Shown here: positions 3,208-38,002 of the stretch, one piece after another
Numbering within the stretch: position 1 is the first letter of the stretch
How the letters are laid out: each line of letters starts with the position of its first letter
Sequence record: NC_019399.1
Origin: Escherichia phage vB_EcoM_ACG-C40
Strand: one strand, 5' to 3'
Length of the DNA: 64,000 nucleotides
Made by a program: the position numbers and the translations under genes
The notes under the pieces: model-generated
The model's database searches: none
Seen by the model: the letters and a program-made list of their open reading frames with translations, nothing else
What the model was told of the DNA's origin: nothing

Positions 3208-3467
3208 AAAAGATTCCTTTTAATGTATCTTTTAGACCATTCTATCATATCATCATAATCTAAAAAGTATTCATCAAATTCAGCCATGCAAACAACACCT
3301 TGTGCTGTTTTTGATGTAATATAAATTATTCCAACATATCTAGAATCTTCTTCGGTATAATCAATGTTTGCTATGAATTCATCGTTAATGTCAAATGTCG
3401 AAAACTTCACAGTATGCATCCTTAATACAAGATACAGCCATATCTCGTAATGATTTAGGTGTGTCAT
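3204..3467 (-). CDS. hypothetical protein (46.1-like); start uncertain
   Basis: ORF between 47 and 46; overlaps the next ORF in another frame, alternative ATG at 3419. Confidence 0.45.
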   Translation of the reverse strand: MTHLNHYEIWLYLVLRMHTVKFSTFDINDEFIANIDYTEEDSRYVGIIYITSKTAQGVVCMAEFDEYFLDYDDMIEWSKRYIKRNLL

Positions 3468-3654
3468 TATCTAAAATGTTGAAGTTAAAAGATACAGCCC
3501 AGTCAGTGCAGACCGTGACCTTTTTAATACAATTATCTTCAACTTCTAGTGGTTCAAACCAATATTCAATAATTTCTTTATGCCCAATATCATCTTTTAC
3601 TTCGCATTCAAAATGCTGACTCATCATAACATTTTTAAATTCATCAAAAGTCAT
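3391..3654 (-). CDS. hypothetical protein (46.2-like)
   Basis: 87 aa ORF directly downstream of gene 47. Confidence 0.45.
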   Translation of the reverse strand: MTFDEFKNVMMSQHFECEVKDDIGHKEIIEYWFEPLEVEDNCIKKVTVCTDWAVSFNFNILDNDTPKSLRDMAVSCIKDAYCEVFDI

Positions 3655-4670
3655 TGTGTTGCCTCTACATATAACTGATTTGCATATTGAATAAGTGCTT
3701 CACGGTCAGAATCGGTGATGTCTGGAATTGCATTAATGTATTCTTCCATCAATGTCTGAAGCGATTGAACTTCAACTTCTTCACTGTCATCTGACTCGAC
3801 AGAGTTATCAATCTTTGACACAACTCGTAATGAATGCACAACTTTTTCTAGTTCAGATTCGAACTTCGTCAGATTTTTGTCTACTTCAGTTACTATAACA
3901 CGTACTGATAGATTTGTAAAATCTTTATAGTCAATTTTTCCTTTAAATGGATAATGAATTCTACGATGCCAGGTAGTATTGTTTGGAATAAATTCCATTC
4001 GTTCTGTTTCTGTATCAAACATCCAGAACCCACGAGGGTCATTCTCGTCACCTGCTGTTAGTGTCCATGGTGTCCCAATATATCTGACGTTAGCAGCCTC
4101 AGAAATAGTATGGAAGTGACCAGACCACACTTCTTTATAAGTCTTAAGGAAATCAGGTTCAAGACCATGAGATTTCATTCCTTTATAAAAATAAAATCCA
4201 TTCAGTTCCCAGTGACCAACACAAAAAGAAGCAGATGAAGTTTTGATATGCTCAAGAATTTCACCAGTATTTTCTTCGCACATCCAAGGAATCAAATCAA
4301 TCAAACATCCGTCAAAATCTACTGTAGTAGGCTTATCATATACTTTAACATTAGGATATTTAGCCAAAAGCTCAGTAGAGGCATTTGGATGCATTACATT
4401 TTTGTAGTGAAGATCGTGATTTCCTACAATAGTATGTAATGTGATTCCAGCACCATCAAGCATTTGAACTATTTCACGGGCAAACTCCATAGTTTTATGC
4501 GTGATTGCTTTTCGCACATCAAAAATATCACCGTATTGAATCCAGGTAGTAATTCCATTTTTCTTAGAATATTCTATTGCTTGTTTAATTCCATCAATTT
4601 GAATACCGCGAATCCACTCATCATCAGCTTTAACGCCTAAATGCCAATCACCTAAATTTAAAATTTTCAT
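3651..4670 (-). CDS. 47: recombination endonuclease subunit gp47 (SbcD/Mre11-like phosphoesterase)
   Basis: 339 aa; metallophosphatase motifs DWHLG, GDIFD, GNHD. Confidence 0.93.
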   Translation of the reverse strand: MKILNLGDWHLGVKADDEWIRGIQIDGIKQAIEYSKKNGITTWIQYGDIFDVRKAITHKTMEFAREIVQMLDGAGITLHTIVGNHDLHYKNVMHPNASTELLAKYPNVKVYDKPTTVDFDGCLIDLIPWMCEENTGEILEHIKTSSASFCVGHWELNGFYFYKGMKSHGLEPDFLKTYKEVWSGHFHTISEAANVRYIGTPWTLTAGDENDPRGFWMFDTETERMEFIPNNTTWHRRIHYPFKGKIDYKDFTNLSVRVIVTEVDKNLTKFESELEKVVHSLRVVSKIDNSVESDDSEEVEVQSLQTLMEEYINAIPDITDSDREALIQYANQLYVEATQ

Positions 4671-34863: not shown

Positions 34864-35127
34864 TTATTTCATATTATTGAAATATTCTTCAGCAATTTCA
34901 TCATTATCATGATAAACTTTAGAAGACAGTTTAACATAACTTTCAGCAGTGAACATGTTAATCACAACCTTTACAGTATACCACTGACCGTCTTCATTAC
35001 CCATTACTGCATAAGTTTCAAACATCGGATGGTCAGGACCGATAACTTTAATATCATTCACTGTACGACCGAAATCTTCTGAAACACATTTCATAAAGAA
35101 GTTGAACAGCTCACCGTAATTATCCAT
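34864..35127 (-). CDS. hypothetical protein, 87 aa
   Basis: ATG 35127 with GGAG SD; the track's TTG start lies inside the promoter. Confidence 0.45.
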   Translation of the reverse strand: MDNYGELFNFFMKCVSEDFGRTVNDIKVIGPDHPMFETYAVMGNEDGQWYTVKVVINMFTAESYVKLSSKVYHDNDEIAEEYFNNMK

Positions 35128-35170
35128 TTCATTCTCCAAGTTGTTTTCTGTATCAGTAGTTGATAGTTGT

Positions 35171-35200
35171 ATAGTACCATGGAAGGACAAGGATGTAAAC
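35171..35200 (-). promoter_or_regulatory. early promoter (GTTTAC, 18 bp, TACTAT)
   Basis: gtaaac 35195..35200; atagta 35171..35176. Confidence 0.6.
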
Positions 35201-35340
35201 CGTTTTGTGAAAAAATTTTTAAAAAGTTTTGGGGAATTCTAGGGCAGGGAGGGGAAATCAAAGGATAGGATAATATATTATAAAGGGTAGAAACTAAATG
35301 ATGTCTAGAGAGGCCTGGAAAGGCCTAGATACCAAAAAGC

Positions 35341-35360
35341 CCCAACCTTTCGGTTGGGGC
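35341..35360 (-). terminator. intrinsic terminator closing the tRNA/small-RNA transcription unit
   Basis: minus strand CCCCAACC-GAAA-GGTTGGGG followed by CUUUUUGG. Confidence 0.6.
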
Positions 35361-35362
35361 TA

Positions 35363-35662
35363 AGCCTTGCGGCAACCTTGTCGGGGTTCCACCTGCTAAG
35401 GCAAGTGTTTGTACGAAACGCCGGGATTCGAACCCGGTTATTAAGCAGTTGACGCTACTCAATATTTTTTAAAAGGCCATATCTCGACCATATCCGAACG
35501 TTCCGTCAAAAACGCTACTCGGCTTACGGCAAAGATATTTCCTCGAATCGATAATTCGGTGCGCCGTTTCTGCTGTGATGTAAGGGGACATTAACAAAAC
35601 ATAAAGATTTATTAATGCCAGTCCTTAAACAGGGAACATCAGTCCGACGACTTACCGGTAGC
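35363..35662 (-). ncRNA. candidate stable small RNA(s), possibly T4 species 1/2 (rnaC/rnaD) equivalents
   Basis: about 300 nt non-coding; tRNA-like T-arm CCGGGTTCGAATCCCGG on the minus strand; GAGTAGCGT repeated twice. Confidence 0.35.
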
Positions 35663-35673
35663 GACCCGGTTTC

Positions 35674-36024
35674 TTAATATTCTTTTAAAGCATCAATCTG
35701 TTCACGGCGTTTACGCCATAAATCAATTGCTTCATACGCAGATTCAGCATTTCGAATTAGCCGGCATTTATGTAAAGACTTATGATTTTGATATTGTGTA
35801 GATAATGGAATTGTATCTAAAAGGTCTTTACGATCAAAGTATTCGTAACCATCTAAACCAAATGAACGATTTTTGAGAAATTGCCAATGGCCAAATTCAT
35901 TTTCAACATAAACATAATCTGCATGCTGATAAAGTAAATTAATTACACGTTCAGAAATAGCAGTATCATTATGATTAAAATAGAATGTTAAATCATGAAC
36001 TACTAAATAAACATTACCTTTCAT
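35674..36024 (-). CDS. hypothetical protein co-transcribed with the tRNAs
   Basis: 116 aa; ATG 18 nt downstream of the tRNA-Arg 3' end with GAGGAAAA SD. Confidence 0.5.
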   Translation of the reverse strand: MKGNVYLVVHDLTFYFNHNDTAISERVINLLYQHADYVYVENEFGHWQFLKNRSFGLDGYEYFDRKDLLDTIPLSTQYQNHKSLHKCRLIRNAESAYEAIDLWRKRREQIDALKEY

Positions 36025-36042
36025 ATTTTCCTCACTTATAAT

Positions 36043-36118
36043 TGGTCGAGGCAGTAGGGATCGAACCTACGACCCAGGACTTAGAAGGTCCTTGCTCTTC
36101 CTTCTGAGCTATGCCCCG
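36043..36118 (-). tRNA. tRNA-Arg (anticodon UCU)
   Basis: hand-folded cloverleaf; 7-bp acceptor, GCTC/GAGC D-stem, loop CTTCTAA, T-loop TTCGATC, CCA encoded. Confidence 0.8.
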
Positions 36119-36122
36119 TAAT

Positions 36123-36198
36123 TGGGGTGACCGATGGGAGTCGAACCCATGACTACGAGAATCACAATCTCGAGTTCTACCAACTGAACTACGGCCAC
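36123..36198 (-). tRNA. tRNA-His (anticodon GUG)
   Basis: cloverleaf with loop TTGTGAT, discriminator C, CCA encoded; no encoded G-1. Confidence 0.65.
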
Positions 36199-36312
36199 AT
36201 TAATACCTACTCCAACAATCATGATGTCTTCACACGAAATTAAGAGAAGAGTGATCAGTTCAACCCCTATAATCGCGTCAAGTAGATATTAATGTGACAG
36301 TTGTCACAAATT

Positions 36313-36387
36313 TGGCGGACGTGATAGGATTCGAACCTATAACCAATCGCTTAACAGGCGATCGCTCTGCCATTGAGCTACACATCC
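36313..36387 (-). tRNA. tRNA-Asn (anticodon GUU)
   Basis: perfect anticodon stem ATCGC/GCGAT, loop CTGTTAA, T-loop TTCGAAT, CCA encoded. Confidence 0.7.
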
Positions 36388-36391
36388 AAAT

Positions 36392-36478
36392 TGGTGGGGA
36401 GTGATGGAGTCGAACCACCCGAGTCGCAATGACAATGAATTTACAGTCCACACCGCTACCTCTACGGGATAACTCCCC
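36392..36478 (-). tRNA. tRNA-Tyr (anticodon GUA), class II
   Basis: 87 nt; acceptor GGGGAGT/ACTCCCC; loop CTGTAAA; long variable arm; T-loop TTCGACT. Confidence 0.65.
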
Positions 36479-36490
36479 TAATTCATAATT

Positions 36491-36565
36491 TGGTGGCCCT
36501 GGGTGGAATTGAACCACCATCTGGCGATTATGAGTCGCTTGCTTGAACCTTCCAGCTACAGGGCC
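36491..36565 (-). tRNA. tRNA with CAU anticodon (Ile2 by T4 position, or Met)
   Basis: acceptor GGCCCTG/CAGGGCC; loop CTCATAA; CCA encoded. Confidence 0.7.
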
Positions 36566-36566
36566 T

Positions 36567-36642
36567 TGGTGCTGATTGACGGAATCGAACCGCCGACCTT
36601 CTCATTACAAGTGAGTTGCTCTACCTACTGAGCTAAATCAGC
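36567..36642 (-). tRNA. tRNA-Thr (anticodon UGU)
   Basis: 76 nt cloverleaf; loop CTTGTAA; T-loop TTCGATT. Confidence 0.8.
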
Positions 36643-36647
36643 AAAAC

Positions 36648-36737
36648 TGGCGGAGGCGATAGGATTTGAACCTATGAGTCGCCGGAGCGACTGCCGGTTT
36701 TCAAGACCGGTGCATTAAACCACTCTGCCACACCTCC
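36648..36737 (-). tRNA. tRNA-Ser (anticodon UGA), class II
   Basis: 90 nt; loop CTTGAAA; long variable arm; 2 nt from the tRNA-Pro 3' end. Confidence 0.8.
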
Positions 36738-36739
36738 AG

Positions 36740-36813
36740 TCTCCATACAAGGATTTGAACCTTGGACCTCCTGATCCCAAATCAGGCGCTCTACCAAACT
36801 GAGCTACACGGAG
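36740..36813 (-). tRNA. tRNA-Pro (anticodon UGG); CCA not encoded
   Basis: loop TTTGGGA; T-loop TTCAAAT; 3' end followed by CT then tRNA-Ser, a dimeric precursor arrangement. Confidence 0.8.
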
Positions 36814-36823
36814 TAAATTGAAT

Positions 36824-36897
<74 letters not shown>

Positions 36898-36902
36898 AAA
36901 TT

Positions 36903-36989
36903 TGGTGCGAGAAGTGGGACTCGAACCCACAAGGAAATCATTCCGCAGCATTTTAAGTGCTGTGCCTTTACCAATTTGACCATTCTCGC
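36903..36989 (-). tRNA. tRNA-Leu (anticodon UAA), class II
   Basis: 87 nt; GCGAGAATGGTCAAATTGG...; loop CTTAAAA; long variable arm. Confidence 0.85.
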
Positions 36990-36995
36990 GTTATA

Positions 36996-37604
36996 TTATT
37001 TATTACGTGAAAAAGACTGTTCTATCAATTCTGGACACTTTCGTTCTATCCATTTTCTAGCTTTTTGTGGGCTTATACCTATTATTTTAGCAGCTTTACT
37101 AACCCATCCAAATTTAGAATAATCGATTTTAACTAATTCTTCGTAAATTTCATCAGTTAAAATCTTTTCATTAATATTTACCAGTAAATGATATAATTTG
37201 TTATCATTAGCAATTTTAATGAATCTTTTATAGTTTCCGCCTTTACTTAAACCTAATGAAGTAATTGCAGATGATATAGTAGCCGAATTTAATAATGCGT
37301 TTAAAATTTCTTCATCACTAACATTATAACGCTTTTTATTATTTTTAATATTTTTACCAGCAAAAGTATCAGTTTGCGAATGACAGTTTGGACATAATAA
37401 TCTTAAATTTGATTTAAGATGATTTTTGTTATTTCCATCAATATGGTCTAATTGTAGAACAATATGCTTATTTTGCCATTTTGAAATTTTACAAATTGCA
37501 CACTCATATGGAAAAATATTTTCTTTTATTATTTTGTCTTTTAGCTTTCCTGTACTAAAATTTGGATGTTTTCCTTCAAAAATTTCAGCTAATTTAGTAT
37601 CCAT
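36996..37604 (-). mobile_element. freestanding HNH homing endonuclease (Mob-like) next to the tRNA cluster; start uncertain
   Basis: HNH motif LQLDHIDGNNKNHLKSNLRLLCPNCH; C-terminal helix-turn-helix-like GISPQKARKWI; track start is TTG. Confidence 0.65.
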
Positions 37605-37714
37605 AATATGATTCCCAATTATTAACAAAGGCTCTCAAGCAAGAACCCTTGATGATAGAGGGTATTAATCAGTGCGGTATGAGTTAATAATAACAAATAA
37701 TTCTTAAAGCATAT

Positions 37715-38002
37715 TTACCATTTATGATGATACATACTTACGATGCATTCAAGACCCAAAGGATTCTTGAAAATATCATATTCAAGAGGACCTTTTTCTG
37801 TTTCAATAAAGAAATCAAAATTTACTGTATTAAATTTACGGTCTTCCTTTACTAATTTAACTTGAGAAGATGAACGGTCAATGTAAACCTTTTCAACTTC
37901 AAAACATGTTAAAATGCCATAATCATCAATCAAGGCTTTAGCTGCATCTTGATCATATTTATATCCATTTTCAATGGATGATACTTTAGCATAAAGAATC
38001 AT
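37715..38002 (-). CDS. hypothetical protein
   Basis: 95 aa ORF. Confidence 0.45.
   Translation of the reverse strand: MILYAKVSSIENGYKYDQDAAKALIDDYGILTCFEVEKVYIDRSSSQVKLVKEDRKFNTVNFDFFIETEKGPLEYDIFKNPLGLECIVSMYHHKW

Follow-up and report, generated by a model that had tools for sequence, protein, structure and literature searches.

The window analysed here is a stretch of 64 kb from Escherichia phage vB_EcoM_ACG-C40 (NC_019399.1), part of a Tequatrovirus (T4-like) genome, and the element in question is an open reading frame (ORF) for an HNH endonuclease at the head of the transfer RNA (tRNA) gene cluster. The ORF physically replaces the body of the tRNA-Gln gene that related phages carry at this position. 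On the minus strand the genes follow the order gene 1 (deoxynucleoside monophosphate kinase), 57A, 57B, an internal-protein gene, trna.4, trna.3, trna.2, the HNH ORF and ten tRNA genes, namely Leu, Gly, Pro, Ser, Thr, Met/Ile2(CAU), Tyr, Asn, His and Arg. The features of the locus, in positions of the window, are as follows.

36996..37604, minus strand: HNH endonuclease ORF, 202 amino acids (aa) plus stop, with an ATG start; the N-terminus is conserved with homologues from this ATG
37611..37617, minus strand: TGGGAAT, a stub of 7 nucleotides (nt) from the 5' acceptor strand of tRNA-Gln, located by alignment with T4, KMB26, G2540-3, T2 and AR1
36990..36995, minus strand: spacer TATAAC, 6 nt, between the stop codon of the ORF and tRNA-Leu, located by alignment
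36903..36989, minus strand: tRNA-Leu(UAA), the downstream neighbour of the ORF (ARAGORN, Rfam)
37715..38002, minus strand: trna.2 homologue, the upstream flanking gene, also present in phages lacking the HNH gene
36043..36897, minus strand: remaining tRNA cluster with Gly, Pro, Ser, Thr, Met/Ile2(CAU), Tyr, Asn, a gap of 114 nt, His and Arg

The ORF fills the intergenic slot between trna.2 and tRNA-Leu and is free-standing; an Rfam scan of the surrounding region recognised tRNAs and nothing else, and therefore no intron-like RNA family. Listed from a TTG start it covers 36996..37628 on the minus strand (210 aa), while the ATG at 37604, which is also the start used by RefSeq, yields 202 aa. RefSeq already annotates the gene as an HNH endonuclease. 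Its GC content is 25.6 %, compared to 34.7 % for the window. A previous sequence-only reading of this DNA had described an ORF of roughly 200 aa ending 7 nt upstream of tRNA-Leu on the same strand; adjacency and strand were correct, the distance has to be amended to 6 intervening nt (36996 versus 36989). A second HNH-like ORF was not found in the window. ARAGORN detected no tRNA-Gln anywhere in the 64 kb, and a permissive Rfam scan of positions 35000-37800 gave no tRNA remnant in the region of the HNH ORF.

The window was compared at the base level with T4, T2, AR1, KMB26 and G2540-3. All five have flanks that are colinear with those of the window and almost the same in sequence. In the five reference phages, tRNA-Gln follows the trna.2 intergenic region and is separated from tRNA-Leu by only 1 nt; the sequence-only reading had likewise placed tRNA-Gln immediately 5' of tRNA-Leu in T4. 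In the window, the 7-nt stub is followed by about 620 nt consisting of CATATT, the ORF and TATAA, which substitute for nt 8-71 of tRNA-Gln. Homology with the empty allele resumes at a C plus GCGAGAATGG, the 5' end of tRNA-Leu. The final C of the TATAAC spacer (AGC in alleles of the phiD1/a51 type) is common to the tRNA-Gln 3' end and the spacer, and the right junction of the phiD1-, a51- and slur03-type alleles retains AG (AGC in phiD1 and a51), derived from the end of tRNA-Gln and the spacer. The insert is a nearly bare ORF with 6 nt on its 5' side and 3-5 nt on its 3' side. Because the 5' stub remains, the direction of the event is that the tRNA was overwritten in the carriers, and not inserted in the other phages. 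The RefSeq genomes of the ORF carriers Ozark and slur03 contain 10 tRNAs genome-wide, all within the cluster and none of them for Gln. The sequence of tRNA-Leu presents no HNH-specific difference between phages with and without the gene. The replacement of the tRNA-Gln body is thus a direct link to the loss of this tRNA, a connection that had been raised as a possibility on the letters alone; the synteny comparison proposed at that time, with T4-like genomes that retain tRNA-Gln, gave colinear flanks and a replacement at base level.

Two further alleles of the cluster were observed. Shigella phage Sf25 has a third allele at this locus (1590-1690, corresponding approximately to 36903-37617 of the window), a deletion of 80 nt without an HNH gene. 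It joins the 5' acceptor and D-arm of tRNA-Gln via similar D-arm sequences to the rest of tRNA-Leu, and the resulting tRNA is a Gln/Leu hybrid whose anticodon, UAA, is that of Leu. In phage AR1 (locus 3354-4004), a seg-type gene annotated as segD is located between tRNA-Gly and tRNA-Ser, in the slot of tRNA-Pro in other Tequatrovirus genomes including the window. Apparently, then, AR1 has lost a tRNA of this cluster to another homing endonuclease gene.

The protein was matched end to end by PHROG 14736 ('HNH endonuclease', E=5e-124) and more weakly by 13 further HNH PHROGs. The Pfam model HNH (PF01844) matched aa 45-77 with 17.3 bits, below the gathering cut-off of 21.4 bits. Among 40 relatives, however, 29 matched PF01844 and 26 matched PF13392 (E<=0.01), thus the sub-threshold score reflects divergence from the model rather than a missing domain. 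The motif reads LQLDH54...N66LRLLC71PNC74H75, preceded by C35xxC38, and the residues C35, C38, H54, N66, C71, C74 and H75 were invariant in alignments of 8 and 40 sequences, down to approximately 35 % identity. An AlphaFold model built on 40 homologues reached a mean predicted local distance difference test (pLDDT) score of 90. In the model, an N-terminal helix is followed by an HNH core of the strand-strand-helix type, then by a flexible linker near residue 90 and by two modules of three helices each (97-141 and 151-189); the modelled beta-beta-alpha core comprises strands 51-54 and 67-70 and helix 72-75. Projected onto the window, the domains are:

37365..37508, minus strand: HNH nuclease core, residues 33-80, with zinc ligands C35, C38, C71 and C74 and catalytic H54, N66 and H75
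37182..37316, minus strand: first C-terminal three-helix module, residues 97-141 (AlphaFold helices 97-105, 110-116 and 124-134, pLDDT >88)
37038..37154, minus strand: second C-terminal helix-turn-helix module, residues 151-189, containing WVSKAAKIIGISPQKARKWIER (AlphaFold helices 151-158, 167-175 and 179-189)

The first module had weak matches to Myb/homeodomain-like folds and is presumed to bind DNA. The second module aligned with the T5 protein HegA, and weak Pfam matches to HTH_29, P22_Cro and HTH_17 were located at aa 164-192. Searches against solved structures by sequence, with the single protein or with the 40-sequence profile, gave no meaningful match. No GIY-YIG family was among the Pfam and PHROG matches of the protein. 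Profile searches, motif and model place the protein among the HNH endonucleases, with an intact HNH/zinc motif and two predicted helix-turn-helix-like modules. The sequence-only reading had named both the HNH motif and a helix-turn-helix-like C-terminal segment, and the profile search it suggested for the HNH assignment supported it with PHROG 14736 and with the Pfam HNH domain in 29 of the 40 family members. Also its view of an enzyme different from the T4 seg type was borne out: the endonuclease of the T4 tRNA region, SegB, is indeed of the GIY-YIG type, and the present protein is distinct from MobB-E as well.

The closest characterised relative is hegA/F-TflIV of phage T5. HegA and the HNH protein shared 35 % identity over 170 aa (BLASTP, E=2e-22, query residues 16-184; tblastn E=5e-15), and the similarity covers the HNH core and the C-terminal helix-turn-helix. 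Both genes are free-standing, and hegA is part of the T5 tRNA cluster, where it follows tRNA-Ile2 in the same orientation at a distance of 24 nt. HegA differs in an N-terminal extension of about 55 aa and in the absence of the first helical module (aa 97-141); furthermore it belongs to another phage family, has tRNA-Ile2 upstream and no tRNA abutting its stop codon. In GenBank records of related phages the label F-TflIV is found on hegA and, once, on the ORF studied here. The T5 tRNA region holds F-Tfl H-N-H genes (PMC3326045), and genes of the hegA/F-TflIV type are sporadic among T5-like phages (PMC3326045, PMC10644984). The title of Akulenko 2004 (cited in PMC5714182, PMC3326045, PMC10644984) calls the three F-Tfl H-N-H enzymes of T5 'site-specific endonucleases', and F-TflIV is listed in the literature among His-Me finger nucleases together with homing endonucleases.

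Free-standing homing endonuclease genes are well known in T-even phages, including segB in the same tRNA cluster. T4 segB resembles the HNH gene in being a free-standing homing endonuclease gene inside a T-even tRNA cluster, with its stop codon next to a tRNA 5' end. It is co-transcribed with the tRNAs from a middle promoter, and when it homes, adjacent tRNA genes are replaced and the set of tRNAs is reshaped (PMC2330249). In contrast, SegB has a GIY-YIG fold unrelated to HNH, and its activity and homing are proven, whereas those of the HNH protein are predicted. Phage HY03 carries both genes. The T4 proteins MobA-E share the HNH superfamily, the lifestyle and the phage group; in them, too, the HNH core is joined to a distinct region at the C-terminus that binds DNA (PMC2988022). 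Their insertion sites are different, nucleotide-metabolism and topoisomerase genes and not tRNAs, and BLASTP and phmmer gave no significant pairwise similarity to T4 MobB, MobC, MobD, MobE or the MobA and I-TevIII fragments (best MobE, E=0.06). HNH genes embedded in phage tRNA clusters, in mycobacteriophages and others, have been proposed to spread or diversify tRNA sets (Morgado and Vicente 2019, PMC6409571); that report concerns a general association, without base-level replacement events. A literature search gave no paper on this HNH gene, on the base-level replacement of tRNA-Gln, on parallel replacements or on a preference for the tRNA-Leu boundary.

In other T4-like genera, the corresponding syntenic slot (gp1, 57A, 57B, ..., HNH, tRNAs) is filled by three diverged homologues. 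In a Marfavirus-like contig, a homologue of 68 % identity is an exact replacement of tRNA-Asn after tRNA-Gln, as revealed by comparison to the Klebsiella phages PhiKpNIH-6 and PWKp18. This carrier keeps tRNA-Gln beside the gene with one change in the T-loop, G57A. A target inside tRNA-Gln that is protected by a variant in the Marfavirus-like carrier was considered and rejected: the variant also occurs in the HNH-less PhiKpNIH-6 (98.6 % identity) and only G57A differs. Behind the HNH gene of the Marfavirus-like phages, a GC-rich non-coding stretch of about 400 nt was observed (contig positions 4607-5009), with equivalents in two further loci. It begins with GCGAGACCAAGCTGGTAA, which resembles the tRNA-Leu 5' end GCGAGAATGGTCAAATTGGTAA. 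ARAGORN and Rfam did not recognise this stretch, and Rfam gave only tRNAs at the locus; the stretch could be a stable RNA or a tRNA that has degenerated. Compared with Erwinia phage Cronus, two Roskildevirus-like contigs (58 % identity) have the gene in place of tRNA-Gln and about 130 nt. The sequence of the six final codons and the stop of this ORF (CGAACAAAACCTATGTGA, contig positions 4590-4612) is shared by Cronus, which lacks the HNH gene, hence the invading ORF terminates in the resident flank. One Roskildevirus-like carrier lacks the tRNA-His that Cronus has before tRNA-Ser.

More distant relatives of 43-45 % identity were located inside tRNA clusters, too. The stop codon of two of them overlaps the start of tRNA-Lys, and a third lies 39 nt after tRNA-Gln and 7 nt before tRNA-Asp. 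Besides the window and T5, residence in a tRNA cluster was found in eight further contexts of relatives. One metagenomic phage tRNA cluster contains an HNH homologue, two tRNA-Lys genes and then an endonuclease-like gene (3313-3936) with a faint Pfam match to GIY-YIG of SegE; this cluster would hold two homing endonuclease genes of different families. An IMG/VR scan with the family alignment yielded 80 loci, 77 of them distinct, and at least one tRNA was present within 2.5 kb in 73 of the 80. The 77 distinct loci included 524 tRNA calls, 88 % of which had the same orientation as the HNH gene. At 23 loci the distance between the stop codon and the start of a tRNA was no more than 20 nt, and the two often overlapped. 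The abutting tRNA was a tRNA-Leu in 14 of these 23 (nine with anticodon UAA), compared to a Leu share of 13 % among all tRNAs there (binomial p ~1e-7), a statistic that ignores shared ancestry and that includes some ARAGORN 'Leu' calls of 75-77 nt which are possibly mistyped. With its stop codon 6 nt ahead of tRNA-Leu(UAA), the window has the arrangement that is most frequent in the clade. Therefore the conserved feature of the slot appears to be the position directly 5' of tRNA-Leu, at the boundary of this gene, rather than tRNA-Gln as such; in Tequatrovirus, tRNA-Gln was probably merely the occupant of that slot and suffered collateral damage.

The near-universal association with tRNA clusters (73 of 80 loci) is also what an HNH nuclease acting on RNA would present. 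Such an enzyme would cleave host or phage tRNAs or their precursors, and the phage tRNAs would replace the depleted host species, which would explain a clade residing in tRNA clusters; the HNH nuclease PtuB is a component of Septu, a defence system that has been reported to cleave tRNA-Tyr (PMC13096335). We regard this explanation as extremely unlikely. The C-terminal modules resemble DNA-binding helix-turn-helix domains, F-TflIV is named a site-specific endonuclease in the title mentioned above and is grouped with the homing endonucleases of the His-Me finger type, and an exact gene-for-tRNA replacement in the DNA is the footprint expected from homing at the DNA level.

Among phage records, the DNA of the HNH ORF was present in 62 at 95 % identity or more, and the intact trna.2-tRNA-Gln-tRNA-Leu allele in 446, thus carriers account for about 12 % or one in eight of the T4-like coliphages. 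The gene is sporadic and not a core gene, a distinction the sequence-only reading had asked to be drawn. In all 62 records, the ORF was full-length with at least 95 % amino-acid identity. The carriers differ among each other upstream, where a 516-nt ORF about 100 nt away is present or absent, and downstream, where the cluster continues with segB (HY03) or with Tyr-Asn-His-Arg and a 351-nt ORF after tRNA-Arg is present or absent. In six carriers the ORF was 99.2 % identical, compared to 97.0 % for trna.2, 98.1 % for 57B and 97.9 % for the Leu-Thr tRNA block. The flank identity among carriers equalled that between carriers and non-carriers, and the flanks did not cluster by gene status. No polymorphism separating HNH-plus from HNH-minus phages was detected within 100 nt upstream or 400 nt downstream. 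Within the ORF, eight variable codons had only synonymous changes and two had amino-acid changes, both in the linker. Distribution, uniformity, composition and the mostly synonymous changes together fit a functional, recently spreading selfish gene; we infer its cleavage activity and its mobility from these sequence comparisons.

A decaying, inactive remnant of a homing endonuclease, kept only because its deletion would disturb the tRNA operon, would have precedents in the defective HNH elements of T4 itself (the mobA fragment and I-TevIII) and could explain the sub-threshold Pfam score. Such a remnant is very improbable considering the full-length ORF in 62 of 62 records, the catalytic and zinc residues that are invariant across relatives at 35-68 % identity, and the ratio of 8 to 2 between synonymous and non-synonymous changes. 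The same data bear on a vertically inherited accessory nuclease that is not mobile. It would have been acquired once in a Tequatrovirus sublineage together with the deletion of tRNA-Gln, its patchiness would result from ordinary homologous recombination in co-infection, and it would have a role in competition or exclusion, or none at present. The flanks recombine freely, with haplotypes changing within about 85 nt of the gene, and the junctions in six of six carriers are base-identical apart from point differences, consistent with a single origin. The gene is nevertheless more uniform than its flanks and resides on several flank architectures, tRNAs of two other genera have been replaced by related genes in independent events, and the catalytic residues are kept by purifying selection; moreover the literature describes T5 hegA/F-TflIV, the closest characterised relative, as a site-specific, homing-type endonuclease. 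We consider the accessory nuclease an unlikely explanation.

In our assessment, the ORF is likely a free-standing gene for an HNH homing endonuclease from a T5 hegA/F-TflIV-like lineage, a gene that entered the Tequatrovirus tRNA cluster at its head and took the place of the tRNA-Gln body. During mixed infections, its product would nick or cut the HNH-less allele at or near the junction of tRNA-Gln and tRNA-Leu. Recombinational repair from the HNH-bearing genome would then copy the ORF in and delete tRNA-Gln. As the relatives in this lineage prefer the position directly 5' of tRNA-Leu, the 5' boundary of tRNA-Leu is probably part of the homing site. Several observations weigh against this homing scenario. 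Neither the flanks nor tRNA-Leu carry a carrier-specific difference, therefore a self-immunity by sequence needs a recognition site extending over the junction or the part of tRNA-Gln that was lost. The Marfavirus-like carrier retains tRNA-Gln, which argues against a general target lying entirely within this tRNA. The Pfam score below the cut-off and the two reservations attached to the tRNA-Leu enrichment, shared ancestry and mistyped calls, point in the same direction. As an alternative to self-immunity by sequence, the enzyme may nick or cut both alleles; I-HmuI is among the HNH homing enzymes that do so.

For the expression of the gene, two elements upstream of the ORF were considered.

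37687..37711, minus strand: match to the MotA-type middle-promoter consensus, TGCTTTA-N12-TATTAT, between the trna.2 stop and the HNH ORF (pattern search)
37627..37650, minus strand: conserved hairpin of 9 base pairs, AAGGGTTCT/AGAGCCTTT, with a 6-nt loop, just upstream of the tRNA cluster (fold)

The match at 37711..37687 begins just past the trna.2 stop and was identical in 11 of 12 genomes. The pattern TGCTTYA-N11-13-TANNNT occurred 15 times in the window compared to 2.4 times expected by shuffling, 12 times on the minus strand (at 40758-40733, 13286-13261 and 6097-6074, among others), and this excess fits an early/middle gene region of a T4-like phage. The match is likely the promoter of a transcript of the HNH gene and the tRNAs. 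The sequence-only reading had proposed another promoter, a MotA-box-like TTGCTT (37642..37637) with a TAATAA (37624..37619). Both strings exist, but they are not consensus, T4 reads TTGTTA, and the hexamer lies in the variable loop of the hairpin. A sigma-70 scan around this candidate gave nothing relevant, and it is probably not a functional promoter. In 12 genomes, HNH-plus and HNH-minus alike, the stem of the hairpin was invariant and the loop variable (TGCTTG, TGCTTA, TGTTAG, TGTTTG). A hairpin sequestering the ribosome-binding site, as in other T4 homing endonuclease genes, was rejected: the 5' region did not fold more stably than shuffles (z=-0.34) and the region of the ATG was not strongly paired.

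Transcription of the T4 tRNA cluster, segB included, has been reported to start mainly at a middle promoter immediately upstream, and processing at the tRNA beside the segB stop codon has been proposed to limit the expression of segB (PMC2330249). By analogy with segB, the precursor of the tRNA cluster would have the HNH ORF as its first cistron and would be transcribed from the promoter at 37711-37687. A cut of RNase P at the 5' end of tRNA-Leu would sever the messenger RNA (mRNA) 6 nt past the stop codon, and this would keep the expression low. GGGA of the tRNA-Gln stub is located 8 nt before the ATG and may act as a weak Shine-Dalgarno sequence.

Further observations concern the distal part of the cluster. 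The non-tRNA gap of 114 nt between tRNA-Asn and tRNA-His (36199-36312, minus strand) holds the inverted repeat TGTGACAACTGTCACA. It is also present in the annotations of Ozark, slur03, a51 and AR1; KMB26, Sf25 and T2 have no tRNA-His, and tRNA-Asn is directly followed by tRNA-Arg. Downstream of a 116-aa ORF after tRNA-Arg, ARAGORN reported a 'tRNA-???' of 96 nt with an odd anticodon (35411-35506, minus strand), where Rfam found no tRNA. It may be the counterpart of the T4 stable RNAs (rnaC/rnaD region) or a false call.

The genes for tRNAs in phages are increasingly seen as counter-measures to tRNA-cleaving host defences, hence the agents of their gain and loss matter. Polymorphism of this kind is typical of T-even phages, and this gene was already annotated as an HNH endonuclease; visible here to the base, in a well-studied phage group, is a selfish nuclease gene overwriting one tRNA, that for Gln, and relatives have likewise overwritten Gln or Asn in two other genera. 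A broader view would be that of a widespread HNH clade specialised for phage tRNA clusters, which homes to the 5' boundary of tRNA-Leu(UAA) across T4-like, T5-like and uncultured phages, overwrites the upstream tRNA, has the 3' end of its mRNA set by RNase P and acts as a general driver of tRNA gain and loss. We regard this generalisation as possible, though rather doubtful, and an extension in which the enzyme of the clade also acts on the tRNA itself as even less likely. If the clade homes to tRNA-Leu boundaries, the 202-aa enzyme together with T4 or T2 as recipients would be a tractable system for homing endonucleases that reshape phage tRNA repertoires, and it could yield a new HNH specificity.

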